Origin: an uncultured Christensenella sp.
GTDB lineage: Bacteria > Bacillota > Clostridia > Christensenellales > UBA3700
NCBI GenBank assembly: GCA_910584975.1
Contig: CAJUEA010000001.1
Location: 205,651 to 269,650, forward strand
DNA: 64,000 nucleotides
Direction: 5' to 3'
How positions within the stretch are numbered: position 1 is the stretch's first letter; the number at the start of each line of letters is the position of its first letter. Made by a program: the position numbers and the translations under genes. Of this stretch, positions 47,802 through 63,765 are shown piece after piece. The notes beneath the pieces were generated by a model. That model did not search any database, was not told the DNA's origin, and saw only the letters and a list, made by a program, of their open reading frames with translations.

Positions 47802-50237
47802 ATGAGTGAATTGAACAAGCATTTGCTGATTGACATAAAGGATAGTGCAAACAATAATTGCAAGATTTTTGGTGCTGTTCGCATTTCTGTTTTAACAAGC
47901 AAAATGATTAGGGTAGAGGTCAGTGAAAGTGGAAATTTCAATGACTTGCCAACTCAAAAAGTTTGGCACAGAGCTTTTGATATTGTGCAATATGACATTG
48001 CAGATATGGGCAAGAACATAGAAGTTAAAACAGCAAGCATAACTGCCAAAATTAGCAAAGACGGCAAACTGAAAAGTGTGCTTTTGCAAGATGGAAGAAA
48101 TGTCACAAATTTTGAGTCCGGAAATTTGAAAGGCACTTGCAGAACACTTGACGGAACTATTGGTGCTGTTAAACTTGAAGATGGTGTGATATCAAAAAAT
48201 GGTGTGGCAATTTTGGATGATAGTGATTCTTTGGTTTTTGATAATCAAGGCAAATTAAGTGAAAAAACAGCCAAAAATCGGGACTATTACATTTTTGCCT
48301 ATGGATATGACTATCGTCAAGCGATTATAGATTTGTACAAATTGACAGGCGAAACACCACTTTTGCCACGCTATGTGCTGGGCAATTGGTGGAGCAGATA
48401 TCGTGCATATACTCAACAAGAATATTTGAAGGTAATGGATGATTTTACCCAAAAAAATATTCCTATTACAGTTGCAACAGTGGATATGGATTGGCACCTT
48501 GTAAATGATATTGATAAAAAGTATAGGACAGGTAGCATTTATCCTTGGGAGTCAACAGGTTGGACTGGCTACACTTGGAATGAAAAGTTGTTTCCTGACT
48601 ACAAACAATTTTTGAAAGATTTGCACAATAGAAATTTGCGTGTAACCTTAAACTTGCACCCTGCACGAGGAGTCAGAGGCTTTGAGGTAATGTATAAGGA
48701 AATGGCTGAGGCAGTTGGTGTCGACTACACCAAGGAAGAGCCAGTTGAATTTGATTTGACAAACGAAAAGTTTGTCAACAGCTATTTTGATATTTTGCAT
48801 CATCCATATGAAAAGGACGGAGTGGATTTTTGGTGGATAGACTGGCAACAAGGCAAAAAAAGTCAAATGCAAGGGCTCGATCCACTTTATGCTTTAAACC
48901 ATTATCACACTTTGGATAACTCTAGAGACAATAAAAGAGGAGTTATTTTGTCAAGATATGCAGGCGTGGGAAGCCACAGATATCCTTTAGGCTTTTCAGG
49001 TGATACAAACACAAGTTGGGAATGTTTGAAGTTTCAGCCGTATTTTACGGCAAACGCAACAAATTGTGGATACTCTTGGTGGAGTCATGATATAGGCGGA
49101 CATCATTTTGGGGTTAAAGATGATGAGCTGTATTGCAGATGGATTCAGTTTGGTGTATTTTCGCCAATCATGCGTTTGCACTCCACTCAAAATGATATAA
49201 TGGGCAAGGAACCTTGGAATTATTCAGGTATTACAGAGGAAATTGCAAGCAGATATATGCGTTTGAGACATTCTTTAATTCCATATTTATACACAATGAA
49301 TATGCGTACTCACAAAGAAGGCATTGCTTTGATTGAGCCTGTTTATTATGACTATCCAACAGACGAAAGGGCATACAAGTGCAAAAATAATTATATGTTT
49401 GGCAGCAATCTGCTTGCTGCACCTGTCACTGAAAAAACAGACAAAAGAACATTGACTGCACCAAGTCAAGTTTTCTTGCCAAAGGGAATTTGGACGGATA
49501 TTTTTACAGGTAAAGAATATATTGGGGACAATATTTTTGAGGTTAACAGAAATTTGGGAGATATGCCTGTTTTTGCAAAACAAGGCGCAATTATTCCTCT
49601 TGCAGAAAATTGTGGTGTTTTGAATAACTGCGAAAATCCTAAAATTTTAAGACTATTGGTGTTTAAGGGTAATGGCGATTTTACCTTATATGAGGATGAC
49701 GGCGAGAGCTTAGATTACAAAAAAGGCGTTTGTGCTCAAAGGAAATTTGCCGTAAGTAAAACGGAGCAGGATTTGACATTTGAAATCAATCCTGTAAATG
49801 GGGATTTATCTGTTTGCACACAAAGAAAATTTATTGTCGATTTTAAAAATATTGAAAGTTGCGATAAAATTGTGGCATTGCTAAATGATAAGCCAGTTGA
49901 TATCACTGCTTTGTACACTGCAAATTCGGCAAGCAATGTAAACTTGACAAATAATTGTTTGGAGTGTGAAATAAACTTGAAACCAACAGATAGTTTTGTT
50001 GTAAAACTTTGCAATTACAAACAAAAAAGCACGGGCAGTTTGAATGAAAACATCGTTAGAATTTTTGCAAAATATCAGTTTAAAAATACAACAAAATCTC
50101 TAATATACAACAATTTTAAAATGGTAGAAACAAAACAAGACTTGCAAAAAAGTCTTTCAAAACTTGCAACCTCAATCATTCACAAAAGATTATATTCTTG
50201 GTTAAAAGAACTGCTTTATATGTCCTTTGACGACTAA
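47802..50237 (+). CDS. glycoside hydrolase family 31 protein
   Basis: 811 aa. VDFWWIDWQQG and WSHDIGGH catalytic-region motifs. Confidence 0.78.
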   Translation: MSELNKHLLIDIKDSANNNCKIFGAVRISVLTSKMIRVEVSESGNFNDLPTQKVWHRAFDIVQYDIADMGKNIEVKTASITAKISKDGKLKSVLLQDGRNVTNFESGNLKGTCRTLDGTIGAVKLEDGVISKNGVAILDDSDSLVFDNQGKLSEKTAKNRDYYIFAYGYDYRQAIIDLYKLTGETPLLPRYVLGNWWSRYRAYTQQEYLKVMDDFTQKNIPITVATVDMDWHLVNDIDKKYRTGSIYPWESTGWTGYTWNEKLFPDYKQFLKDLHNRNLRVTLNLHPARGVRGFEVMYKEMAEAVGVDYTKEEPVEFDLTNEKFVNSYFDILHHPYEKDGVDFWWIDWQQGKKSQMQGLDPLYALNHYHTLDNSRDNKRGVILSRYAGVGSHRYPLGFSGDTNTSWECLKFQPYFTANATNCGYSWWSHDIGGHHFGVKDDELYCRWIQFGVFSPIMRLHSTQNDIMGKEPWNYSGITEEIASRYMRLRHSLIPYLYTMNMRTHKEGIALIEPVYYDYPTDERAYKCKNNYMFGSNLLAAPVTEKTDKRTLTAPSQVFLPKGIWTDIFTGKEYIGDNIFEVNRNLGDMPVFAKQGAIIPLAENCGVLNNCENPKILRLLVFKGNGDFTLYEDDGESLDYKKGVCAQRKFAVSKTEQDLTFEINPVNGDLSVCTQRKFIVDFKNIESCDKIVALLNDKPVDITALYTANSASNVNLTNNCLECEINLKPTDSFVVKLCNYKQKSTGSLNENIVRIFAKYQFKNTTKSLIYNNFKMVETKQDLQKSLSKLATSIIHKRLYSWLKELLYMSFDD

Positions 50238-50357
50238 TAATATTGTTGTGCAATATCTTTAAATTGAGTTTTTTATATTGCAATTATATTGTTTGATTTT
50301 TCTTGTTATAAAATAATGATAACTTTTAAAATATTTAAAAAAAATTAATAAACACTA

Positions 50358-50386
50358 TTGATATTGAAAAATTATTGTGATATAAT
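50358..50386 (+). promoter_or_regulatory. sigma-A-type promoter of the fucI operon
   Basis: TTGATA, 17 nt, TGaTATAAT. Confidence 0.6.
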
Positions 50387-50387
50387 G

Positions 50388-50414
50388 AATGTGCAACATT
50401 GATTGTTGCACATT
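50388..50414 (+). promoter_or_regulatory. perfect 11-bp inverted repeat (candidate operator)
   Basis: aatgtgcaaca-ttgat-tgttgcacatt, immediately downstream of the -10 box. Confidence 0.55.
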
Positions 50415-50435
50415 ATATTTTTTTGGAGATATATT

Positions 50436-52199
50436 ATGAAATGCAAAATAGGAATTAGACCTGTAATAGATGGACGCTGTGGAGGCATCCGTGAGAGTTT
50501 GGAAGAACAAACAATGAATATGGCAAAATCAGCAAAAGCACTTATTGAAAGCAATTGTTTTTATAGTGATGGCACACCTGTGGAATGTGTGATTTCTAAC
50601 ACGACAATTGGTGGTTCGGCAGAGGCTTGCAAGTGTGAGGAACAATTTGCCACTGAAAATGTAGTGGCGACTTTGACGGTTACTCCTTGTTGGTGCTATG
50701 GCACAGAGGTTATCGACCTTAATCCAAACACAATTAAAGCTGTTTGGGGCTTTAACGGCACAGAAAGACCAGGCGCAGTATTTTTGGCTTGTGCTGTTGC
50801 TGCAAGTGCTCAAAGAGGACTACCTATTTTTTCAATATACGGTAAAGATGTTCAAGATATTGGAGATACTGTGATTCCAGAAGATGTTAAAAACAAAATT
50901 TTGTCTTTTGCAAAGTGTGCAATCGCAGTTGGACAAATGAAAAACAAAACATATGTTGGACTTGGTGCTGTTTCAATGGGTATTGCAGGCTCTTTTCTTG
51001 ACGGCAACTTTATGCAACAATATTTTGGTATTCGTGCAGAATGGGTGGATATGGTTGAGATTGACAGAAGAATTAATCTTGGCATTTATGACAAGGCAGA
51101 GTACAAAAAAGCTTTGGAATGGATGAAAGCAAATTGCAAAGAGGGCATTGATATAAATGACTACAGCAAGCCTCGTATTGTTATGTCAAAAGATAAGCTT
51201 TGGGAATATACTGCAAAAATGGTTGTTATCGTAAATGATATTATGTTTGGCAACCCTAAACTTAAAAAGATGGGATATCCAGAAGAGGCAAATGGCAGAA
51301 ACGCTATTGCAGGTGGTTTCCAAGGTCAAAGACAATGGATTGACAGATTGCCAAACGGCGATTTTATGGAAAGCATTATGAACACTTCTTTTGACTGGAG
51401 AGGCAAAAAAGAGCCATTTATCCTTGCAACAGAAAATGACACTTTAAATGGTATGTCAATGCTTTTAAACAAGCTAATCACAAATCGTGCAAGCGTGTTT
51501 GCTGATGTGCGTACATATTGGTCGCCTGAGGCTGTTCAAAGAGTAACTGGTTGGAAGGCTGACGGCTTTGCTAAAAATGGATTTATTCATATGATTAACA
51601 GTGGTGCAGCCGCACTTGACGGCATTGGTGCATGTAAAGATGAAAATGGCAATGCTTGCATGAAAGAGTGGTGGAAAATTACTGAGGAAGATATCAAGGC
51701 AACAATGGATAATGTAAGATGGTCACAAGCAAATCTTGATTATTTCAGAGGTGGTGGATTCAGTTCGGATTTCAAAACTATTGCCGAAATGCCTATGACA
51801 GCAGTAAGATTGAATATGGTGGACGGATTGGGTCCAGTTTTGCAGATTGCAGAAGGTTACACAGCTGTTTTGCCTGACGAAGTTGACACAATTTTGCAAA
51901 ACAGAACAGATAGAACTTGGCCATCAACTTGGTTCGTGCCAAACTTGACAGGCGAAGGTCCATTTAAGGATGTTTATAGTGTTATGGCAAACTGGGGTGC
52001 AAATCACGCAGCACTTGCTTATGGTCACATCGGTAGTGAGTTGATTACAATTGCATCAATGTTGCGTATTCCTGTAAATATGCACAATGTAAGTGAAGAT
52101 AGGTTGTTCAGACCACACACTTGGACTGCATTTGGCACAAAAGATCTTGAGTCGGCGGATTACAGAGCTTGCAAAACTTACGGACCACTTTACAAATAA
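50436..52199 (+). CDS. fucI: L-fucose isomerase
   Basis: About 587 aa. KIGIRPVIDGR N-terminus typical of FucI. Start at ATG 50436. Confidence 0.88.
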   Translation: MKCKIGIRPVIDGRCGGIRESLEEQTMNMAKSAKALIESNCFYSDGTPVECVISNTTIGGSAEACKCEEQFATENVVATLTVTPCWCYGTEVIDLNPNTIKAVWGFNGTERPGAVFLACAVAASAQRGLPIFSIYGKDVQDIGDTVIPEDVKNKILSFAKCAIAVGQMKNKTYVGLGAVSMGIAGSFLDGNFMQQYFGIRAEWVDMVEIDRRINLGIYDKAEYKKALEWMKANCKEGIDINDYSKPRIVMSKDKLWEYTAKMVVIVNDIMFGNPKLKKMGYPEEANGRNAIAGGFQGQRQWIDRLPNGDFMESIMNTSFDWRGKKEPFILATENDTLNGMSMLLNKLITNRASVFADVRTYWSPEAVQRVTGWKADGFAKNGFIHMINSGAAALDGIGACKDENGNACMKEWWKITEEDIKATMDNVRWSQANLDYFRGGGFSSDFKTIAEMPMTAVRLNMVDGLGPVLQIAEGYTAVLPDEVDTILQNRTDRTWPSTWFVPNLTGEGPFKDVYSVMANWGANHAALAYGHIGSELITIASMLRIPVNMHNVSEDRLFRPHTWTAFGTKDLESADYRACKTYGPLYK

Positions 52200-52200
52200 A

Positions 52201-52231
52201 AATTTGTGGGCAGTTTTTGCCCACATTTTTA
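52201..52231 (+). terminator. intrinsic terminator or attenuator after fucI
   Basis: Stem tgtgggca/tgcccaca followed by a T-run. Confidence 0.7.
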
Positions 52232-52423
52232 AAAGTGAAAAAATGATACATTTTAAAATGCAAAAAATTGTTGTGTTGAAAAGAAAAAAAGCTTAATAAT
52301 TTTTAGTGTTTGCTTTTTATTATGCAGTGTGATTTGAGGTTGTATTTTTAATGTTATAGTTGATTAAAAATCTCACGAATTGAATTATTTGAAAATTATA
52401 ATGTAAAAATGTTAAAAAAATGT

Positions 52424-52440
52424 GTCAAAAATCGGGGTTA
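52424..52440 (+). repeat. recurrent 17-nt motif copy (gtcaaaaatcggggtta)
   Basis: fucI-aldolase intergenic region, 25 nt upstream of the aldolase ATG. Confidence 0.65.
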
Positions 52441-52464
52441 AATTTAAAATTGAGAGGCGAATTT

Positions 52465-53718
52465 ATGGTTAAAAATACAAAAAATGGAGTTTTGGAAACA
52501 ATCAACAGAGTGTATTACAATGGACTTACAACAACCAGTGGTGGTAATATCTCTTGTATGGATGGCAATGGCACAATTTATATTACACCATCTGGTGTGG
52601 ATAAAGGCAGTTTGACGGATGAGGACATTATGACTGTTAAGGCAGATGGCAGTGTTGAAGGCAAACATACTCCTTCAATGGAGTTGCCATTTCATTCAAA
52701 TATTTACAAATGTCGTGAGGATATAAGGGCAGTTGTTCATGCTCACGCACCAAGCGTTGTGGCTTATGCAACTGCAAGAAAAATTCCTGACAGCAGCGTT
52801 GCACCTTGCTATCAAAAAATGTTGGGAAAGGTTGCTGACAGCGTTTATGATTTGCCGGGGTCATTGGCTTTGGGCGATATTGTAAAAGCTAAGTTTGATG
52901 AGGGGTACAATAGTGTTATGATGCACAATCATGGAGCAACAGTTGGTGCAGAAACACTTGAAATTGCTTACAGAAAATATGAAACTTTGGACAATTTGTG
53001 TGCAACACTTATCAATGCAAGCATTTTGGGTGGTGTGAAAAAGTGTGATAATCACGCAGATTACAGCGTAAAAATTGCTAGTGAAAACATTGCGCTTACT
53101 GATGAAGAACTGGCTATTGCCGAGGAAATGGCAGGATTTATCAAAAGAAGTTTTTATCAAAAGTTAATGTCAACAAGTCTTGGCACTTTGTGTGTTAAAA
53201 CTGATAACGGAGATATTTTGTTTAATCCAGATAGTGTTGGAAGAGATAAAATTGAGGCAAAAGACATTGCAAAGTACAGCAACGGAAAGTTTTATAATGT
53301 GTGCGACAAAACTGCCGACTATTTGCAAATTGCAGTTGAAATTTTTGCGCAAATTAAAAAGGCAAAAGTTTGCTTTATTTCTATGCCAAATGCTACTATG
53401 GGATTTAGCATTTCACACAAGTATTTTGATGCAAAATTGATTCCAGAAAGTTATATTATGCTTAAAAATGCTGTTCAGTTGGAGTGTGGTGTTTCTGCAA
53501 AGCAAATTGCTGCAAGTATGGCTACAACCAAACCTCTTGCTATTGTAAATAACGAGTGCGTTATCACAATAGGCAAAAATTTGACAAAAGCGTTTGACAG
53601 ATTGGAGGTTACAGATTATTCTGCAAGGTCAATTATTTCTGCTTGCAATATTGCACAAATCACTCCGATTAATGATGAGCAAAGTGCAGAAATTGACAGA
53701 ACTTTTAATGGATGGTAA
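52465..53718 (+). CDS. class II aldolase/adducin-family protein, tandem two-domain form
   Basis: Domain 1 keeps E (SMELPFH), HAH and NHG metal-ligand positions, as in L-fuculose/rhamnulose-1-P aldolase. Domain 2 lacks them. Confidence 0.75.
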   Translation: MVKNTKNGVLETINRVYYNGLTTTSGGNISCMDGNGTIYITPSGVDKGSLTDEDIMTVKADGSVEGKHTPSMELPFHSNIYKCREDIRAVVHAHAPSVVAYATARKIPDSSVAPCYQKMLGKVADSVYDLPGSLALGDIVKAKFDEGYNSVMMHNHGATVGAETLEIAYRKYETLDNLCATLINASILGGVKKCDNHADYSVKIASENIALTDEELAIAEEMAGFIKRSFYQKLMSTSLGTLCVKTDNGDILFNPDSVGRDKIEAKDIAKYSNGKFYNVCDKTADYLQIAVEIFAQIKKAKVCFISMPNATMGFSISHKYFDAKLIPESYIMLKNAVQLECGVSAKQIAASMATTKPLAIVNNECVITIGKNLTKAFDRLEVTDYSARSIISACNIAQITPINDEQSAEIDRTFNGW

Positions 53719-53723
53719 AAAAT

Positions 53724-54986
53724 ATGCAGTATTTAGCAATTGATCTTGGGTCATCAAGTGCAAGAATTATGCTTGCTGACGGAAATAAAAATTTGGCATT
53801 GACTGAACTTGCAAGATTTCCACACAGTGCAAGTCTTGATAGCAATGGTCATTATCGTTGGGATATTGACAAACTTTTTGCAAGCATTAAAGAGGAAATT
53901 TGTGAGGCAATCAAAAAATATCAAATCAGCTCAATTGGAATTTGTTCGTGGGGTGTGGATTATGGTGTCATCGGGGAAGATGGCAAGCTTATTGATATGC
54001 CATATTGCTATCGTGACAGCCGTGGAGAGTTGATGTTTAAGGAATTGCACAAGCAAATAAGTCAAGAGGAGTTATTTGCATTAAGTGGTATTTATCCAAA
54101 TTCAATCAACACAATTTATCAGCTTTATGCAGATAAAATGCAAGATAGATATGCTGGTAAAATAGTAAAAATTGCAATGATTGCCGATTTATTAGCGTTT
54201 TATTTAACGGGCAATATTCGCATAGAGCGTAGCAACGCAAGCACAACTGGAATTTTGAATTTGCAAGGCACTGATTGGAATTATCAATTGCTTAATAATC
54301 TTGGCTTAGATAGTGAAATATTGCCAAAATTGATTTTTGACGGGGAGCAATACGGAGAGTTTTATGGTGTTCCCGTTGTTGCAGTTGGCACACACGACAC
54401 TGCATCTGCAATATATGCTTTGGAAGGGCTAGATAACAAAACTGCATTTCTTGCGTCTGGTTCTTGGTTGCTGTTTGGAAAAGTGCTTGATAGCCCTGTG
54501 TGCGAAAAAATTGCATTTGAAAATAGGTATACCAATGAAAGGATAAATGGTGGCAAAGTCAGTCTGCTTGACAACATAAATGGCTTGTTTATCATTCAGC
54601 GTCTTGTGAGTGAAAACAACTTAAATTACAAGCAAATTGATGAAAACATTGATGGTGCAAAAGTGCTTGGAGAGTTGGATGTTGACAAACTAATGTCTCA
54701 AGACGATATGACAGGGGATATGAAAAAACAACTTGGCATTGCAGATTGTAATATTTATGATTTGGTTAAAACAGCATATTACTCTCTTGCAAAAAGAGTA
54801 GTTCTTGCAGTTGAAAGACTTGAGCAAGTGACTGGAGAGAAAATTGAAAAAATTGTTATGACAGGTGGTGCAACAAAAGCAAAATATTTTGTGGGAATGT
54901 TAAAAAACCTTTCAAAAATCGATATTATATGCACAAAAAGCGAAGGTGCAACCTTTGGAAATGCACTTCGTCAAAGCAGGGTGTGA
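53724..54986 (+). CDS. FGGY-family sugar kinase (rhamnulokinase/fuculokinase-like)
   Basis: YLAIDLGSSSARIM N-terminus and GTHDTASA motif. Confidence 0.8.
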   Translation: MQYLAIDLGSSSARIMLADGNKNLALTELARFPHSASLDSNGHYRWDIDKLFASIKEEICEAIKKYQISSIGICSWGVDYGVIGEDGKLIDMPYCYRDSRGELMFKELHKQISQEELFALSGIYPNSINTIYQLYADKMQDRYAGKIVKIAMIADLLAFYLTGNIRIERSNASTTGILNLQGTDWNYQLLNNLGLDSEILPKLIFDGEQYGEFYGVPVVAVGTHDTASAIYALEGLDNKTAFLASGSWLLFGKVLDSPVCEKIAFENRYTNERINGGKVSLLDNINGLFIIQRLVSENNLNYKQIDENIDGAKVLGELDVDKLMSQDDMTGDMKKQLGIADCNIYDLVKTAYYSLAKRVVLAVERLEQVTGEKIEKIVMTGGATKAKYFVGMLKNLSKIDIICTKSEGATFGNALRQSRV

Positions 54987-54987
54987 T

Positions 54988-55227
54988 ATGAATGAACTTA
55001 TAAAACACATTGATAAACTGCACACCACAGAGCTTGGAGTTATAAGAATTCGCAGAAATCTAACTTTGGAAAATATCAATGTGGTAGAGTGGTGCAAAAG
55101 CAAATTAACTGACAATAATGCACAAATAACTCGCCAAGGCAAAAATTGGTATGCAACAATAGACAATGTAAAAATAACCATAAATGCCCACAGCTACACA
55201 ATAATAACTGCACATAAAATTAAGTGA
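54988..55227 (+). CDS. DUF3781 domain protein
   Basis: IDKLHTTELGVIRIRRNL motif. Start at ATG 54988. Confidence 0.65.
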   Translation: MNELIKHIDKLHTTELGVIRIRRNLTLENINVVEWCKSKLTDNNAQITRQGKNWYATIDNVKITINAHSYTIITAHKIK

Positions 55228-55515: not shown

Positions 55516-55867
55516 GGGGATGTTTCGGATTCGACAAGTGGGTGTGAGATTGTGTAAGCGTGCCGTAGGTTCGTCTACGATAAAACGATCGTTTAAATTA
55601 AACGCAAAAAATAATAATCAATTGGCTTTCGCTGCGTAATTAGCGAGCCTGTCGCGCCTGTCGTCCTATCCGATAGGAGTGCGGCATCATTAAGAATAGG
55701 AAGGTCTTTTTGCCAGTGGTGTGGGGCAGAAAGATAAATCAGCACCTCATCAAAATGTAGCCTGTGCAAAAGGCGACATCGCGAAAAATTCAAAATTTGC
55801 ACTTCGCACGAAGAAAGCACAGTTAATCCCCGTTTGGACACGGGTTCAACCCCCGTCATCTCCACCA
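55516..55867 (+). ncRNA. ssrA: transfer-messenger RNA (tmRNA)
   Basis: 5' GGGGATG pairs with 3' CATCTCC plus ACCA. T-arm CGGGGGTTCAACCCCCG. Tag ORF GCA AAA AAT AAT AAT CAA TTG GCT TTC GCT GCG TAA encodes AKNNNQLAFAA. Confidence 0.95.
55853..55867 (+). repeat. attL-like direct repeat (3' end of ssrA)
   Basis: ccgtcatctccacca, identical to 60625-60639. Confidence 0.8.
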
Positions 55868-56169: not shown

Positions 56170-56198
56170 TTGCAAACTTATTATTGTTGTGATATAAT
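56170..56198 (+). promoter_or_regulatory. sigma-A-type promoter of the islet cassette
   Basis: TTGCAA 56170-56175, 17-nt spacer, TGaTATAAT ending at 56198. GGAGGA RBS at 56214. Confidence 0.6.
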
Positions 56199-56222
56199 AA
56201 TAAAAAATACATCGGAGGAAAT

Positions 56223-58703
56223 ATGAGAGAGTTTCTAGCATATACAACAAAATTGCAAAATAGTAATTATAATCATATTGTTTTGATAAAAGAAATTGTT
56301 GACGATAGGCTTGTAAGTATTAGTGATGAAGATTATGCTTTAATTATGCCTGACCATAAACAAATTAGAGTTGATAACCAAGAAAAATGGCTTTTTAATG
56401 ATGATGAGAAAGCGATGATACCGGAAATTGAATTTTGCAAATATGATAATGGTTTGCTAATTTTGAAATATGATGAAACTGAGGCAAAAGGCGATATTTA
56501 CGCCCAAACAAAGTTCTTGGATAATTGTTCTTTGTTGCCGACAAATAAGTTTTTAAGAATAATACAAATAGAAAAATCAATAGATGATATAATGAAGAGT
56601 AAGTCTAATAGAATTGTGGACATACCATCATTTAGTAATTCAATAAATAGCAATATAATTTTGGAAATAGACGGTGTTTATTATGGTCCTATAAAAATAA
56701 GACCTTTTTATTCTAAAGATGGCAAAGTGCTAATCGATTTAAGTAAAGAGTACCAAATTAAAAAAATATCTTCAGATAAAGTTTCTGCTAAAATTGTAAA
56801 AACTAAAGTGGATAGAACTGCTGATGAAAGGATTGGTTTTTTTTGGAAAGAAGAAGATTGTTTTACGGATGAAGCTAGCCTAATAAGATTTTATGATCTT
56901 GAAAAAGAAAAAGAAAAAATTGACAAAATGCTTGATAAAATTGCTACATTAGGCAAAATTGATTTTTCTAAATTGCAAGCAGCTTTTACACAAATTAACC
57001 AAGAGGAATACAGTACAGATGAGTTAAACTCAATAAAATCTGTTTTTGAAAAAGGACAATTAAATTACGCTCAATTTTCCGGAATTGCACAATTGTTTTT
57101 CAACGAATTGGATGATGAGAAAAAAAAATTAATCAATAAATTTTTTGAAGACAATCCTACTGTAATAGAAGGAGAAAAGAAGAAGTATCTTCTAGAGAGC
57201 GACAAAGCAATTGCTGAACAAAATGAGAAATTTTCTAAACTATCAAACGACATTAAAAGTAAGGAAAAACTATTAGACGAACTTAATATTCACAAAAAAA
57301 ATATTGAAGACGAATTAGAACAAATTAAAGTTAATAAGCAAAAATTGTTGGAAGAGCAAGCTTCATTAAACAACGAAAAAATTAATCAGCAAAAAGCATG
57401 CATCGACGAATTAAAATCGGCCATAACAGATCTGGATAAACAAAAAGAAGAAAAACAAGAGGATATTGAAGCTAAAAATGCTAGATTAGTGGAATTGCAG
57501 AAAGACTTGCGTCGATATAAAACTGATTTAAATGGTTTTATTGATCAAATTATTAAAGAAAAAATTTCCGATGATGTTCGCGACCTTTTAATTAATAAAA
57601 TTGAGTTTAAAAATAGTAATAACGATATGGAAGATGATGCTTATAATACTACCAATGATGTGGAAAATTTTATTTCACTATTTGTTGATAATATAAGATC
57701 AGCTAGACCAGCTTATAGCTCGGATTTTATCAAGAATATTTTAATATGCATTTCGCAAAACTTTGCAACTATTTTTGCAGGACCTCCAGGAAGTGGAAAA
57801 ACCAGTATTTGTAATTTGCTTGCAAATGAATTTGGTGTTTATGATAAAGACAGATTCAGTATTGTTGAGGTGGAAAAAGGATGGACTACACCTAGAGATT
57901 TGATAGGATATTTTAATCCTTTTACGAATGCTGTTGAATCAAAGAACCCTAAATTTTTCAAACAGCTACAGATTAGTAATGAAGAATGTGAAAAACAAGT
58001 GACTGATGCTCCTGTAAATTTAGTAGTTTTGGATGAGGCAAATTTAAGTCCTATTGAATACTATTGGTCTTCATTTTCTTCAATCTACGATGATGTATGC
58101 AATGGTAATGTTGAACGACAAGTACATATAAATAATCAAAATAAATTTAAAATCGCAAAAACATTGAGGTTTTTGGGAACTATAAATTATGATTATACAA
58201 CAGAAATGTTATCTGAACGATTTTTAGATCGTGTATGGATTATTAGGTTAGATAATAATTTGTCAATTGATAATATAAACGGCTCAACTATTAAGATTGC
58301 AAATCAAATCCCTATTAATTTTTATGATATTATTGAATATATGACACCTAACACCACCGATTGTTTAGATGAAGATTTGGAAGTAAAATTGGGAAAAATA
58401 ATTGCACATTTAAAAGACATGAAAGTTAATGTTAGTTATAGGGCTTTAGAAAAAATTAAAAAATATTTAATAATCGCTGTTAACAAAGGAATTATTGAAG
58501 AGAAAGATTTAGCATTAGATTATGCTATTTTGCAGAAATTGATAATTTTGATAAATGGTTATGGTGAAGAATATGGCGAAAAAATAAATTTATTAAAAGA
58601 TTTGTGTAATGATTTTTCTTTAAAGAATACAGTTTTAGAACTTGATAAAATTATTGAGAATGGCAAAAAGAATAATGATAACTATTCGTATTTTGGTGTT
58701 TAA
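56223..58703 (+). CDS. McrB-like AAA+ (AAA_5-type) NTPase with an unknown N-terminal domain and a long coiled coil
   Basis: 826 aa. Walker A FAGPPGSGKTS (nt 57780-57806), Walker B VVLDEANLS (D604-E605), then LRFLGTINYDYTTEMLSERFLDRV. Residues ~215-450 are heptad-like K/E/L/N/Q-rich. Confidence 0.7.
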   Translation: MREFLAYTTKLQNSNYNHIVLIKEIVDDRLVSISDEDYALIMPDHKQIRVDNQEKWLFNDDEKAMIPEIEFCKYDNGLLILKYDETEAKGDIYAQTKFLDNCSLLPTNKFLRIIQIEKSIDDIMKSKSNRIVDIPSFSNSINSNIILEIDGVYYGPIKIRPFYSKDGKVLIDLSKEYQIKKISSDKVSAKIVKTKVDRTADERIGFFWKEEDCFTDEASLIRFYDLEKEKEKIDKMLDKIATLGKIDFSKLQAAFTQINQEEYSTDELNSIKSVFEKGQLNYAQFSGIAQLFFNELDDEKKKLINKFFEDNPTVIEGEKKKYLLESDKAIAEQNEKFSKLSNDIKSKEKLLDELNIHKKNIEDELEQIKVNKQKLLEEQASLNNEKINQQKACIDELKSAITDLDKQKEEKQEDIEAKNARLVELQKDLRRYKTDLNGFIDQIIKEKISDDVRDLLINKIEFKNSNNDMEDDAYNTTNDVENFISLFVDNIRSARPAYSSDFIKNILICISQNFATIFAGPPGSGKTSICNLLANEFGVYDKDRFSIVEVEKGWTTPRDLIGYFNPFTNAVESKNPKFFKQLQISNEECEKQVTDAPVNLVVLDEANLSPIEYYWSSFSSIYDDVCNGNVERQVHINNQNKFKIAKTLRFLGTINYDYTTEMLSERFLDRVWIIRLDNNLSIDNINGSTIKIANQIPINFYDIIEYMTPNTTDCLDEDLEVKLGKIIAHLKDMKVNVSYRALEKIKKYLIIAVNKGIIEEKDLALDYAILQKLIILINGYGEEYGEKINLLKDLCNDFSLKNTVLELDKIIENGKKNNDNYSYFGV

Positions 58704-60371
58704 ATGAACTTGAAGTTATATTGTGACAATACCATCATTGATATTGATTTTTGGAAAGAATATGAGCCTGGAGAAATTAGTGAATTAAACGATGATATTA
58801 TTTTCTATGATAATAAACAATATTCAATTTGTTTAGATGAAGAAGATACTTATGAATTATATGTGAATAATGAATTTGTTGAAGATCTAGCAAGCAATAT
58901 GAATTTCTCAAAGTTTTTTGGGAATGTTCAATTTTATTTGAAAGATAAAAAGACACAAAAAATTTTTTCTAGTGATTATTATTGTGTTTCTAGCGATAAA
59001 ATTTCTAGCGAAGATTTTGAAATTATGCTTAATGATATTTTAGAAAATTGTCCAACGCAAGTGTTAGTGAAATGCTTTGGTATGCATAATTCAGAATTGA
59101 ATCCAAACAAGAAAATATCATCAATAAACACAAAAATTAAAGCAATAGAAAACATTATCGTTTATATGGTCAAAAATTTGCATCATTTTGAAGTTAATGC
59201 AAAATCAAAACTTAGTCCAAAATATAAAAAGGTTGATTATTCAAATATTAGCGATATTGACTCAATAACGATTAGTCATATGGCAGAAAATTGCGATGAG
59301 TGGTTTAGGACATCAACGAGTGGAATAAAAATAAATAAAAAATATTTTTTGCCTAATAAAGTGATGACAAAAATAAGCGTTGACAATAAGGCAATATATG
59401 AAAACAAGTCAATTGTTAATTTTTTAAATTATTTAAGAAACGAGTTGTTATTAATAGAAAAAACTTTAGAAAATGCGAAAAATGGATTAATTAGGCATTA
59501 TAGAAAACTAAAAAAAATATATCCAAATTCAAATATTGTAGAATCGTATACTACATTTTATTACGAAAAATTAAATGATAAAGCTAGTGCCTTGAAAAAA
59601 GAATTGACGAAAATACTAATGAGGTTACAGAAATCATTTAGTTGTTGTGCTGATAATGGTTATTGCTTGCCAGCATACACACATATTTTTAGACAAATAC
59701 CTATGTATAGGCAAATGTTTTTATTTATGTTGGATTATGATAATTTAGGTGAAAATTTGGAAACAAAAATTAATTATTTTGTTGATATAATACCTGCATA
59801 TACGATATATGAGCTTTATTGTTTGAATCGAATTATTGAAGGAATTTCGATTCTTGGCGGTCAAAATAAAAATTTCTTTAATTTGGATAACGATGGGTTA
59901 ATTTTTAGTAGTTATTTAGAAATTGATGATGTAGTAATAAAACTTTATTATGAGCCTAAAATCATGAAGTCTCAGCAGAGTTTAAGTTTGGATGTGGCTG
60001 ACTATTATATCGATAGTCAAAATAATATTCAGCTTAAAAAGGTTGCTAAACAAGGATTTGTCCCTGATTTTGTTATCGAAATATTAAAAGATAATAAAAT
60101 CAATTATGTTATACTAGATGCTAAATTTAGCAAAAGGAGTTCTGTTGACAAATATCATCTTTCAAATATTATCAACAAATATGTGGTAAGTATTATTCCA
60201 AAAGATAGCTATACTTTTAAATTAATGACAGGAATAATGTGTTTAAACGGTGATAAAACAATAGTTAGAAATCAAAGAGCTAGTTTAGGATATGAGCAAA
60301 TTGAAATAATGCCTATTAATATCAATAAAAATAAAATTGATGTTAAAGATATATTAAATATGATATGTTGA
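58704..60371 (+). CDS. McrC/DUF2357-like protein with a C-terminal PD-(D/E)XK nuclease motif
   Basis: 555 aa. The ATG immediately follows the upstream TAA. VPD455FVIE...VILD472AK474F motif (nt 60066-60125). Confidence 0.65.
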   Translation: MNLKLYCDNTIIDIDFWKEYEPGEISELNDDIIFYDNKQYSICLDEEDTYELYVNNEFVEDLASNMNFSKFFGNVQFYLKDKKTQKIFSSDYYCVSSDKISSEDFEIMLNDILENCPTQVLVKCFGMHNSELNPNKKISSINTKIKAIENIIVYMVKNLHHFEVNAKSKLSPKYKKVDYSNISDIDSITISHMAENCDEWFRTSTSGIKINKKYFLPNKVMTKISVDNKAIYENKSIVNFLNYLRNELLLIEKTLENAKNGLIRHYRKLKKIYPNSNIVESYTTFYYEKLNDKASALKKELTKILMRLQKSFSCCADNGYCLPAYTHIFRQIPMYRQMFLFMLDYDNLGENLETKINYFVDIIPAYTIYELYCLNRIIEGISILGGQNKNFFNLDNDGLIFSSYLEIDDVVIKLYYEPKIMKSQQSLSLDVADYYIDSQNNIQLKKVAKQGFVPDFVIEILKDNKINYVILDAKFSKRSSVDKYHLSNIINKYVVSIIPKDSYTFKLMTGIMCLNGDKTIVRNQRASLGYEQIEIMPININKNKIDVKDILNMIC

Positions 60372-60451
60372 TTATAGAGTGAAATGGTATGACACTTTTC
60401 ACGCGACACACTTATGAAAATGCCACTTTTCACAGGGCATACACAATAACC

Positions 60452-60481
60452 AAAAAAGCACCAGTGTAGGTGCTTTTTTTG
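60452..60481 (+). terminator. intrinsic terminator of the cassette
   Basis: Stem agcacc/ggtgct with loop agtgta, followed by a T7 run. Confidence 0.75.
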
Positions 60482-60624
60482 TTATAGTTATCATACTAGG
60501 GGGGGGGACGCAAGGGAAAGCAGTTGCCAGTGGCAAGTGCGACCGAAGCAGGCGTGATAGCAAGGGTTTAGCCCCGAGCAAGCTATGCTTGCGAAGTGCA
60601 CATCAGTGCATTGTGGAGTAACCA

Positions 60625-60639
60625 CCGTCATCTCCACCA
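60625..60639 (+). repeat. attR-like direct repeat
   Basis: ccgtcatctccacca, second copy of the ssrA 3' end. Confidence 0.8.
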
Positions 60640-60644
60640 CATTT

Positions 60645-62178: not shown

Positions 62179-63216
62179 TCATATGAATTTTTCAATAGTT
62201 AAACTTAAAATTATTTTAAATATGTCGGATTGTTTATAATTCATTTTTTGCATAGCATAAGTAAAAGAAGAATGTTTGCAAATAAATGGCATAGTGGCTA
62301 TGTCAAATAAAAATTCTTCACCTTTATCATTTATACGAAAATCTGCTCTACCATAACAACTAATTCCTAAAGCTGGAACTATCTTGTTTAATATTTTTTG
62401 AAATCTATTTGGGCAATTAGATTCAAACAAAGAAAAAGTATAGTCATTTTTTGCTGATGAATTAGCATCTAAAAAAGTGTTATTGTTAATTAGAATTTCA
62501 ACTGGTGGTAAAGCAATAACTTGTTCTTTCCATACAAAGAAGGGACATTCTATTTCTTTACCTTCAATAAATTCTTGAATTATCATTGTTTGATTATTTA
62601 TAAAACTTAATTCATCATAATTAAAATCTTTATAATTATAAATATTTTCAGAAATTCCAATACTGCCACTTTCTGCAATTGGTTTAATTATAATTTTCTT
62701 TAAATTATTTGTGGGTGGTTTGGTTCCTATCCAGTTTTTATTTGGTAAATAAGCATATGTTTTGGGACAATTAACATTTAATTGAGATAAAAATTTATTA
62801 TATACAAATTTATTTCTACATAGTGATTGTACAAAAGATCCCGAACCAGTATAAGGTATTTTTAACAAATTACAAAATGCTGGAATTAAGCTTTTTTTAC
62901 CTTCTTTCAAACCATTTCTTGCGAAATTAAACACTATTATATCTTGTTGATCTAATTTTTTATTTAAAATATCAGACATGAACTTTAACTCGTTGAAATA
63001 TACTATATAATTCATTTTCAATTCTTTAATTGAATTTAAAATGTCATTATATTCTTGCTCAGTAAATTTTTCTATGTCGATTGCATCTTCAAGTTGAATT
63101 CCAATATCATCTGAATAACCTTGTACATTTACAAGCAAAACAATAATTTTAGTTATTTGCTTATTAATTTTCTCACTATAATTATATAATTCAGAAATTT
63201 CATTATTTTTTTTCAT
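62179..63216 (-). CDS. divergent ATP-grasp enzyme (D-Ala-D-Ala ligase-like)
   Basis: 345 aa. IIKPIAESGSIGIS, QEFIEGKEIE and GRADFRI motifs in Ddl order. The E-x-N Mg site reads D-I-A. Confidence 0.65.
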   Translation of the reverse strand: MKKNNEISELYNYSEKINKQITKIIVLLVNVQGYSDDIGIQLEDAIDIEKFTEQEYNDILNSIKELKMNYIVYFNELKFMSDILNKKLDQQDIIVFNFARNGLKEGKKSLIPAFCNLLKIPYTGSGSFVQSLCRNKFVYNKFLSQLNVNCPKTYAYLPNKNWIGTKPPTNNLKKIIIKPIAESGSIGISENIYNYKDFNYDELSFINNQTMIIQEFIEGKEIECPFFVWKEQVIALPPVEILINNNTFLDANSSAKNDYTFSLFESNCPNRFQKILNKIVPALGISCYGRADFRINDKGEEFLFDIATMPFICKHSSFTYAMQKMNYKQSDIFKIILSLTIEKFI

Positions 63217-63222
63217 AAGGCC

Positions 63223-63765
63223 TCATATTTTCCTAATATTTTTGTTGATTTCGGATAAAAATTTATCGTTAATAATAATTGGTTCTTTTTTGAGTTCTTT
63301 AAGTATTAAATCATTTAATTTTGTTGCATTAGTTAAATTTAATGGTTTTTGTGTTACATATAGAGTTTTTGCTTCAGGGCAATGAGTATGTCTACCATAA
63401 GATAATAAAATGCCATGACTAAAAAAATATTTTTTTGAATAATCATTTTCAAAGTTTTTTGAATTAAGTAATATAATTAAACAAATATCGTTATCTTCTT
63501 CACTTCTTACATTGATAAAGATAGCATTTTCTTCAATTTCATATGTTCCTTTATAATTATATTTGTTATTATCATCATCATCAATATAATCAAAATTTAT
63601 AAGTATTTCATTATTTTCATATTTGAGATGAGATGTGTCTATTGTGTTAACGTCTAATGTGTTAGCTGTATAAATATATAAGTTTGATAAATATTTTATA
63701 ATTTTTTTATCATCAGTATTTTGACTAGTTTGATTTTGTGTAACAGAATTAAAAATATCTCCCAT
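63223..63765 (-). CDS. hypothetical protein
   Basis: 180 aa. AAAGGAG RBS. Its stop lies 6 nt before the ATP-grasp start. No motif recognised. Confidence 0.55.
   Translation of the reverse strand: MGDIFNSVTQNQTSQNTDDKKIIKYLSNLYIYTANTLDVNTIDTSHLKYENNEILINFDYIDDDDNNKYNYKGTYEIEENAIFINVRSEEDNDICLIILLNSKNFENDYSKKYFFSHGILLSYGRHTHCPEAKTLYVTQKPLNLTNATKLNDLILKELKKEPIIINDKFLSEINKNIRKI

Follow-up and report, generated by a model that had tools for sequence, protein, structure and literature searches.

A mobile two-gene cassette beside a tmRNA gene as a divergent, Type I-like candidate of the CoCoNuT branch of McrBC systems

What does a pair of abutting genes do that sits alone beside the transfer-messenger RNA (tmRNA, ssrA) gene of an uncultured Christensenella species, and does it belong to a kind of system that is already known? 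The pair lies in a 64,000-nucleotide stretch of contig CAJUEA010000001.1 (assembly GCA_910584975.1, positions 205,651 to 269,650, forward strand), which we call the window, and forms a cassette of about 4.2 kb made of two open reading frames, ORF1 and ORF2. An earlier sequence-only reading gave the lengths and coordinates of both frames exactly as we find them and proposed an atypical, McrBC-like, modification-dependent or abortive anti-phage module. Our analysis supports the McrBC-like part of that proposal and alters the rest. We conclude, with a probability of about 0.78, that the cassette is a two-gene, Type I-like member of the NxD (CoCoNuT) branch of McrBC systems, which would cut the nucleic acid of invading phages and so protect its host. 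That branch received its name and its survey in 2024, and the cassette adds to it a divergent member rather than a system of a new kind.

Profile, alignment and structure searches agree in supporting McrB as the closest relative of the C-terminal NTPase module of ORF1, in sequence and in predicted structure. The Walker A lysine (K526), the Walker B pair (D604-E605) and the block downstream of them (GTINYD, residues 652-657) had been named in the sequence-only reading, and all three motifs form invariant columns in an alignment of 70 family sequences; two arginines, R666 and R670, lie beyond the NxD. A profile of the module built from ORF1 and five relatives matches the E. coli McrB chains 6hz4, 6ut6 and 7vsr at E ~1e-14, over a span that extends from Walker A to the signature motif, and the same profile matches McrB of T. 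gammatolerans at 1.6e-6. An hhalign comparison of the NTPase family with EcoK McrB gives 94% probability. In the AlphaFold model of ORF1, for which 13 sequences were used, only residues 476-826 are confident (predicted local distance difference test score, pLDDT, 70-95), and the best Foldseek match of this AAA+ part in the PDB is again McrB (6hz4_E, 3.5e-8). The NTPase core is about 22% identical to EcoK McrB, 41-48% identical to members of its own family, and 26-33% identical to Type I-A fragments, to a protein designated P0016 that is taken up below, and to NxD proteins without a predicted coiled coil. ORF1 is thus an AAA+ NTPase of McrB type in which the canonical NxxD signature is absent and NxD stands in its place.

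The start codon of ORF2 directly follows the stop codon of ORF1 in the same frame (GGTGTT TAA ATG), as the sequence-only reading had seen. ORF2 belongs to the McrC-like partner family, and we infer from its sequence a nuclease fold of the PD-(D/E)xK type. Its motif consists of P454-D455 and D472-A-K474, with E370 also in the core; the protein has a beta-rich N-terminus and a DUF2357-like helical region (about residues 65-380) that contains Y232-E233-N234. Six of these residues (E233, E370, P454, D455, D472 and K474) are invariant in an alignment of 62 partner sequences, in which the previously proposed PD455...D472-A-K474 core is present throughout. With phmmer, ORF2 matched 70 proteins that are encoded directly 3’ of ORF1-like genes, with E-values down to 4e-32. 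Among the 62 aligned partners, 49 contain DUF2357 and 25 contain PDDEXK_7, the McrC nuclease family, so that an adjacent DUF2357 and PD-(D/E)xK partner is found at the level of the family. Comparison of the ORF2 family with EcoK McrC by hhalign (E=6e-5) aligned VILD472AK474 on IVDAK, and comparison with the CnuC protein of the P0016 operon gave 94% probability (E=1.3e-7) in the DUF2357 region. The YEN motif of the ORF2 family is also present in the CnuC sequences of the supplement to Bell et al. Two other matches, of ORF2 to OppA (E=0.022) and of an MciZ-like protein to A2, were judged to be chance.

The same pairing recurs across a wide range of bacteria. Word-indexed homology searches gave 16 matches for ORF1 and three for ORF2; a pattern scan over 185,579 species-representative genomes found at least 288 loci with a relative of the NTPase module, 31-39% identical along its full length. 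Their hosts include Clostridia, Negativicutes, Anaerobiospirillum, Sutterella, Capnocytophaga and Chitinophaga. We fetched 80 of the 288 loci and took gene context and motif counts from them. The NTPases are 820-1370 aa long where complete and always carry T(I/V)NxDxTT, and nearly always a partner of about 600 aa, bearing PD(F/Y)...(I/L)xDAK, is encoded within about 20 nt downstream. The pairing of NTPase and nuclease holds in every related locus that we inspected. Every one of the more than 80 relatives collected has NxD. A third gene is not conserved in the 80 loci, where the largest cluster of flanking genes (6 of 80) reflects housekeeping synteny. No further family members came from a search with the NTPase profile of 70 sequences, in which coiled-coil words dominate the word index.

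The deletion of one residue that turns NxxD into NxD defines a major branch of McrBC systems (PMC11090510), and within it the CoCoNuT clade is characterized by a GTPase fused to a long coiled coil (PMC11090510; Bell et al. 2024, eLife 13:RP94800). Both features are found in ORF1. Residues 318-437 contain neither proline nor glycine, heptad a and d positions are occupied up to 0.75, and the long helix of residues 316-447, modelled at pLDDT 50-68, is read as the coiled coil; by sequence and model, ORF1 has the coiled coil that CoCoNuTs require. Sequence evidence supports a place for the cassette in the CoCoNuT branch by these two marks, NxD and coiled coil. The label "atypical" given in the sequence-only reading therefore falls, since the two marks are published hallmarks of CoCoNuTs and the PADLOC model PDC-M26A already describes the NTPase. 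That reading had also held that membership of an already named system would count against it, and through the CoCoNuT branch and PDC-M26A this is in part what we find.

The coiled coil also accounts for a set of weak matches that could be taken to mean that the pair is not immune at all. ORF1 weakly matches SMC, JetC/MukB-like, LmuB and ZorA models and the islet that holds the pair has no integrase, as might be expected if the genes encoded an SMC/Rad50-like coiled-coil ATPase and a nuclease for DNA repair or chromosome maintenance, or if they were a decaying remnant. These matches are restricted to the coiled-coil segment (residues ~250-460), which matches only the coiled-coil parts of SMC, JetC and ZorA, and we rejected them, together with those to LmuB and Exonuc_VII_L, as compositional; the NTPase is an AAA+ protein of McrB type and not an ABC/SMC head. 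Both ORFs are intact with all catalytic residues kept, the ratio of non-synonymous to synonymous substitution rates (dN/dS) is 0.29-0.41 for the two genes, and the patchy, strain-variable distribution on prophages and islets is atypical of housekeeping repair genes. A role in repair or a state of decay is consequently very improbable.

The cassette is mobile, as it is found on a prophage, on viral contigs and on islets that flank tRNA and tmRNA genes. A nearly identical copy of the module (Table 1) lies in a metagenome-assembled genome from the gut, directly behind the Dit and tail genes of a prophage, a reverse transcriptase of the diversity-generating retroelement (DGR) type, XhlA and a holin. 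The shared module begins at 56188, inside the promoter-like site, and the flanks of the prophage copy are unrelated to the window on both sides; the genes downstream of the islet and those downstream of the prophage copy are likewise unrelated. The two loci record a recent move between prophage and chromosomal islet. Between the copies, ORF1 differs at nine synonymous and 16 non-synonymous sites (dN/dS 0.41), none of the changes falling within the core from Walker A to NxD, and ORF2 differs at six synonymous and eight non-synonymous sites (dN/dS 0.29). Both ORFs are under purifying selection. Seven viral contigs of IMG/VR carry family members, with the complete pair on four of the seven. On the prophage itself, the gene of the DGR-type reverse transcriptase (phrog_1423, E=2e-121) shares the stretch L001 5576-6969, just 5’ of XhlA and the holin, with that of an accessory protein of 89 aa.

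The islet is inserted at the 3’ end of the tmRNA gene, which agrees with the integration hotspot proposed in the sequence-only reading. A 20-nt sequence from the tmRNA end occurs at both ends of the islet, with 19 of 20 positions conserved in the distal copy; it has two matches in the window, where none would be expected by chance. Because the repeat recurs at 60620-60639, att-like copies flank an islet of 4.77 kb whose only cargo is the cassette. In the simplest view, this islet either remains from an element that integrates at tmRNA genes or can be mobilised in trans by one. Comparable arrangements recur in the family: in L013 a tmRNA gene is followed after 334 bp by a member with about 31% identity to ORF1, in L014 (6109-11736) the pair stands alone in a 5.6-kb islet flanked by copies of a tRNA-Arg 3’ end that agree at 19/20 positions, and in about 10 of 60 loci a tRNA gene is no more than a few hundred bases from the pair. 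At two of the loci there are extra att-like copies between the tRNA gene and the pair (L026 5991-6010 and L050 5090-5113), which suggests arrays of small islets.

Within the CoCoNuT branch, the two-gene Type I layout (I-A or I-C) is matched and Types II and III are excluded because no third gene is conserved; the CnuH helicase, CnuE nuclease and CnuD Hsp70-like genes are all absent from the islet. Type I-A shares with the cassette its two-gene composition, NxD, a coiled-coil CnuB and YEN(R/Q/K) in the DUF2357 region, and two Type I-A CnuB fragments share 29-33% identity with the NTPase core of ORF1. Type I-A is nevertheless excluded, because ORF1 lacks the helical insert that sets Walker B apart from NxD (50 residues lie between D604 and N655, as against about 120 in insert-bearing proteins), and because ORF2 at 555 aa is too short for the CoCo-CSD-CoCo insert. 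ORF2 also differs in having no C-terminal zinc-ribbon cysteine pairs, and the Type I-A N-termini have no profile similarity to those of the family (0.05% probability in an hhalign comparison with the cold shock domain (CSD) region of Type I-A CnuB).

Type I-C systems comprise a CnuB of CSD-YTH-CoCo-McrB architecture and a CnuC of IG-McrC_N-PD-DxK architecture (Bell et al. 2024, eLife 13:RP94800). They resemble the cassette in gene number and B-then-C order, in NxD, in a coiled coil N-terminal to the GTPase and in the lack of a helical insert between Walker B and NxD. The partner is similar as well, at ~550-620 aa with DUF2357, an intact PD-DxK and a beta-rich N-terminus, the last seen in a low-confidence model of ORF2 that we discarded (six beta-strands in residues 1-90, pLDDT 22-56). 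In Type I systems generally, and in McrC of the NxD clade, this end of the partner is an Ig-like beta-sandwich. We place the subtype between I-C and unclassified, and leave these two undivided because the N-terminal ~235 residues of ORF1 are an orphan region that has no confident fold.

The multi-gene systems of the branch offer further comparisons. A Type II CoCoNuT, Obs of Pseudomonas aeruginosa, protects against RNA phages and one DNA phage; it has seven genes, among them a Upf1-like helicase and a HEPN protein, and its CnuC nuclease is probably inactivated (bioRxiv 10.64898/2026.04.06.716636). The cassette shares the Type II core of CnuB (a coiled-coil NxD GTPase) and CnuC (DUF2357) but has only two genes, and its nuclease is intact. 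PADLOC has its own candidate: its PDC systems are predictions by genomic embedding, and PDC-M26 has candidate status only. The model PDC-M26A recognizes ORF1 (E=5e-25) as well as every family member tried, though on ORF1 the match covers only positions 139-428 of the 724 in the profile, and no PADLOC model matches ORF2 or the partner proteins. PADLOC is therefore unlikely to call a complete system automatically, and current defence-finder models cover only half of the cassette system.

PDC-M26A also matches P0016, a coiled-coil NxD NTPase encoded in a multi-gene operon. This operon (L101 1-9540) encodes a Ser/Thr kinase, a Upf1-like helicase, a 518-aa protein, the coiled-coil NxD NTPase and a DUF2357 protein, and looks like a multi-gene CoCoNuT. 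Among the PADLOC Mokosh models, MkoA matches the helicase (E=4e-100) and MkoB weakly matches the 518-aa protein. We considered P0016 as a Type I-A protein, with an insert between Walker B and NxD, and rejected this assignment on account of its multi-gene operon.

The N-terminal region of ORF1 is a putative specificity or sensor module. The sequence-only reading found nothing that it recognized here, and wider searches bear this out for some 235 residues: residues 1-236 have no Pfam match at E<=0.1, residues 1-235 have no phmmer match within their own family, and a search of 1.84 billion representatives returned a single marginal match to residues 1-235, P0031 (E=3e-4). We judged P0031 uninformative (957 aa with tandem repeats of ~77 aa, matched over a short VYYG.(I/L)K(I/V)). 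The model of this region has pLDDT below 50 and no confident fold. Across the family the module is weakly conserved apart from the invariant G155 and P156, and Pfam searches of 70 family N-termini found no domain except one Trigger_N.

A variable N-terminal module is the norm for McrB specificity, and it is possible to read the cassette as canonical, modification-dependent Type IV restriction of the EcoKMcrBC kind, in which an N-terminal reader would bind modified bases and two complexes would translocate and cut between their sites. In both systems an McrB-type AAA+ NTPase is followed immediately by an McrC-type subunit, with Walker A and B, signature Asn and Asp, and a D...D-A-K nuclease core, and both subunits of the cassette are homologous to McrB and McrC. 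The claim that no methyltransferase is adjacent also holds: none adjoins the cassette among the window ORFs or by Pfam searches of the neighbours, there is no cognate methyltransferase in the window, and the gene families that recur in the flanks of the 80 loci include none. The differences nevertheless make this explanation unlikely. The N-terminus of ORF1 shows no similarity to the known modified-base readers (DUF3578/ADAM, EVE/YTH, SRA and Mrr_N) at Pfam E<=0.1, and EcoKMcrBC has a DUF3578 domain that binds 5-methylcytosine where ORF1 has a long coiled coil and an orphan N-terminus. EcoKMcrBC has NTAD (NxxD) and ORF1 has NxD, and ORF2 is extended at its N-terminus by about 100 aa. The NxD deletion and the coiled coil separate the branch from all characterized modification-dependent McrB proteins. 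The modification dependence proposed in the sequence-only reading is not upheld, as no modified-base reader domain is detectable.

The branch to which we assign the cassette raises another possibility, as the NxD and coiled-coil systems are predicted to target RNA (PMC11090510), and RNA phages are among those that Obs protects against. One family NTPase (1049 aa, L008 502-3648) carries an N-terminal Trigger_N, the ribosome-binding domain of trigger factor, at 27.6 bits, above the Pfam cutoff. This echoes the translation-related domains reported for CoCoNuTs and suggests that some family members monitor the ribosome. It is conceivable that the cassette is an RNA-directed or abortive CoCoNuT, in which the N-terminal module would sense RNA or a component of translation, and viral or host RNA would be degraded with dormancy or death as the result. 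We regard this as rather unlikely. No CSD, YTH, OB, SmpB-like or HEPN/RNase domain was found in ORF1, ORF2 or the 69 other family NTPases, the sole nuclease is a PD-(D/E)xK enzyme of McrC type with intact residues, and the characterized McrC acts on DNA. The protective Type II system, moreover, has helicase and HEPN partners that are missing from the cassette. Because the only nuclease is an intact McrC type and no RNA-binding or RNase domain is detectable, we lean, at slightly better than even odds, towards the DNA of an invading phage as the substrate; RNA as the substrate, the main alternative, is possible but doubtful.

Several results weigh against a Type I-like CoCoNuT and are collected here. 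The CSD and YTH domains of Type I CnuB were not detected by Pfam in ORF1 or in 69 relatives, and the N-terminus of ORF1 folded without confidence. The family follows NxD with Y, H or Q and then TT, where E or D is usual. As a single sequence, ORF1 scores 16.8 bits against AAA_5 (cutoff 22), and every Pfam AAA model falls below its cutoff. In the Foldseek search other McrB entries, MCM and dynein AAA+ structures come close behind 6hz4_E, so the lead of McrB is slight. ORF2 alone scores 19.3 bits against DUF2357 (cutoff 23.3), and it has no match among PADLOC, NCBIfam and PHROG models and no meaningful one among PDB sequences. With the 62-sequence profile of its family, the PDB sequences that came up were only noise from keratins and coiled coils, and McrC was not reached. 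The AlphaFold model of ORF2, from three sequences, has pLDDT 39 and no Foldseek match at E<=0.001, and was discarded; because this model failed, the nuclease fold is read from sequence. Finally, the functional data that we found for NxD systems come solely from the seven-gene Type II locus.

A two-gene, Type I-like CoCoNuT is nevertheless the explanation that we prefer. By analogy with the McrBC systems of E. coli and Thermococcus, ORF1 would form an NTP-dependent, probably GTP-dependent, hexameric ring. ORF2 would insert its DUF2357 stalk into this ring, stimulate hydrolysis and supply the PD-(D/E)xK nuclease. Recognition of a feature specific to the invader, and with it the licensing of cleavage, may fall to the variable N-terminal module that the coiled coil holds. 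The outcome would be protection of the host or, for the prophage-borne copy, shielding of the prophage’s host from competing phages. We infer the function in defence from homology, from the prophage and islet context and from the one experimental report on a Type II CoCoNuT; the NTP specificity, target and phenotype given here for the cassette are predictions.

The features of the locus are collected in Table 1. ORF1 and ORF2 are the only long ORFs between 56223 and 60371. The islet is AT-rich, as had been claimed, with a guanine-plus-cytosine (GC) fraction of 0.26-0.28 over the cassette versus 0.34-0.38 upstream. The sequence-only reading gave the pair its own promoter and terminator; the terminator is confirmed as a hairpin with an 11-bp stem, and the promoter site is present, with 10 of 12 consensus positions. 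It is weak evidence on its own because such sites are common in the AT-rich DNA of the window (43 found, 34.9 expected).

Table 1. Features of the cassette and its islet, in window coordinates.
Feature	Position	Strand	Basis or remark
tmRNA (ssrA) gene	55516..55867	+	ARAGORN; Rfam RF00023, 160.3 bits, E=3.6e-64
attL-like 20-nt direct repeat AACCCCCGTCATCTCCACCA	55848..55867	+	tmRNA T-loop to CCA end
Promoter-like site TTGCAA-17 nt-TATAAT, extended -10 TG	56170..56198	+	consensus match only, 10/12
Module shared with prophage-borne copy, L001 7965-12200	56188..60420	+	4,233 bp, 98.9% identity
ORF1, CnuB/McrB-like	56223..58703	+	826 aa; N-terminal orphan region, coiled coil, NxD-type AAA+ NTPase
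Orphan N-terminal region, ORF1 residues 1-235	56223..56927	+	family-invariant G155-P156
Long helix read as coiled coil, ORF1 residues 316-447	57168..57563	+	132-residue single helix in model
McrB-like AAA+ NTPase module, ORF1 residues 476-826	57648..58700	+	motifs, profile, AlphaFold, Foldseek
Walker A G520PPGSGKT, K526	57780-57803	+	sequence motif
Walker B LVVLD604E605AN	58020-58037	+	sequence motif
NxD N655-Y-D657, within GTINYD 652-657	58185-58193	+	sequence motif
ORF2, CnuC/McrC-like partner	58704..60371	+	555 aa
Intrinsic-terminator-like hairpin, bidirectional	60452..60479	+	11-bp stem
attR-like repeat of tmRNA 3’ end, 19/20	60620..60639	+	distal islet end

Just 3’ of the ORF2 stop codon, at 60389-60442, lies a 31-bp tandem duplication (ATGACACTTTTCAC / ATGCCACTTTTCAC) that is not in the prophage copy and forms the right edge of the shared module. 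A GC-rich stretch of ~160 bp (60480-60640), which has no Rfam match, separates the terminator of the cassette from the attR-like repeat. Within this stretch, the 26-nt sequence GACGCAAGGGAAAGCAGTTGCCAGTG (60507-60532) is found again 3’ of the prophage-borne cassette (L001 12259-12284), where the DNA around it differs.

The genes that neighbour the islet encode a sugar kinase, a DUF3781 protein, a glyoxalase and an ATP-grasp protein. A sugar-utilisation cluster (47802-55227, GC ~0.36) precedes the tmRNA gene and looks like ordinary core genome; Pfam confirms an FGGY kinase (424 aa) and the DUF3781 protein among its members, and the labels of glycoside-hydrolase-like (811 aa), fucose-isomerase-like (598 aa) and aldolase-like (432 aa) proteins are read from translations only. 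A second very AT-rich patch (62179-63765, minus strand, GC 0.228) holds two genes, one for a protein of 345 aa that resembles ATP-grasp enzymes and D-Ala-D-Ala ligases and one for a protein of 180 aa without a Pfam match, and may be another acquired segment.

The interest of the cassette lies in its minimal size, its recent mobility and its orphan sensor region. It is compact at 4.2 kb, has a promoter-like site and a terminator, keeps its catalytic residues and moved recently, and so offers a practical minimal model for asking what the NxD deletion and the coiled coil contribute, whether DNA or RNA is cut, and what the orphan N-terminal sensor targets. It is tempting to speculate further that the ORF1/ORF2 family is a CoCoNuT-like type of its own, as yet unclassified, marked by T(I/V)NxD(H/Y/Q)TT, by an N-terminal module with an invariant G-P that is neither CSD nor YTH, by interchangeable baits and by islets mobilised in trans. 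We hold this idea tentatively and think it fairly unlikely. If it is true, the N-terminal bait would decide what is sensed, Trigger_N being the bait in one member and an orphan of ~110 aa in ORF1; the McrC nuclease would always be intact, and the pair would travel by itself in minimal att-flanked islets that lack an integrase, lie at tRNA and tmRNA genes and are moved by the integrases of prophages.

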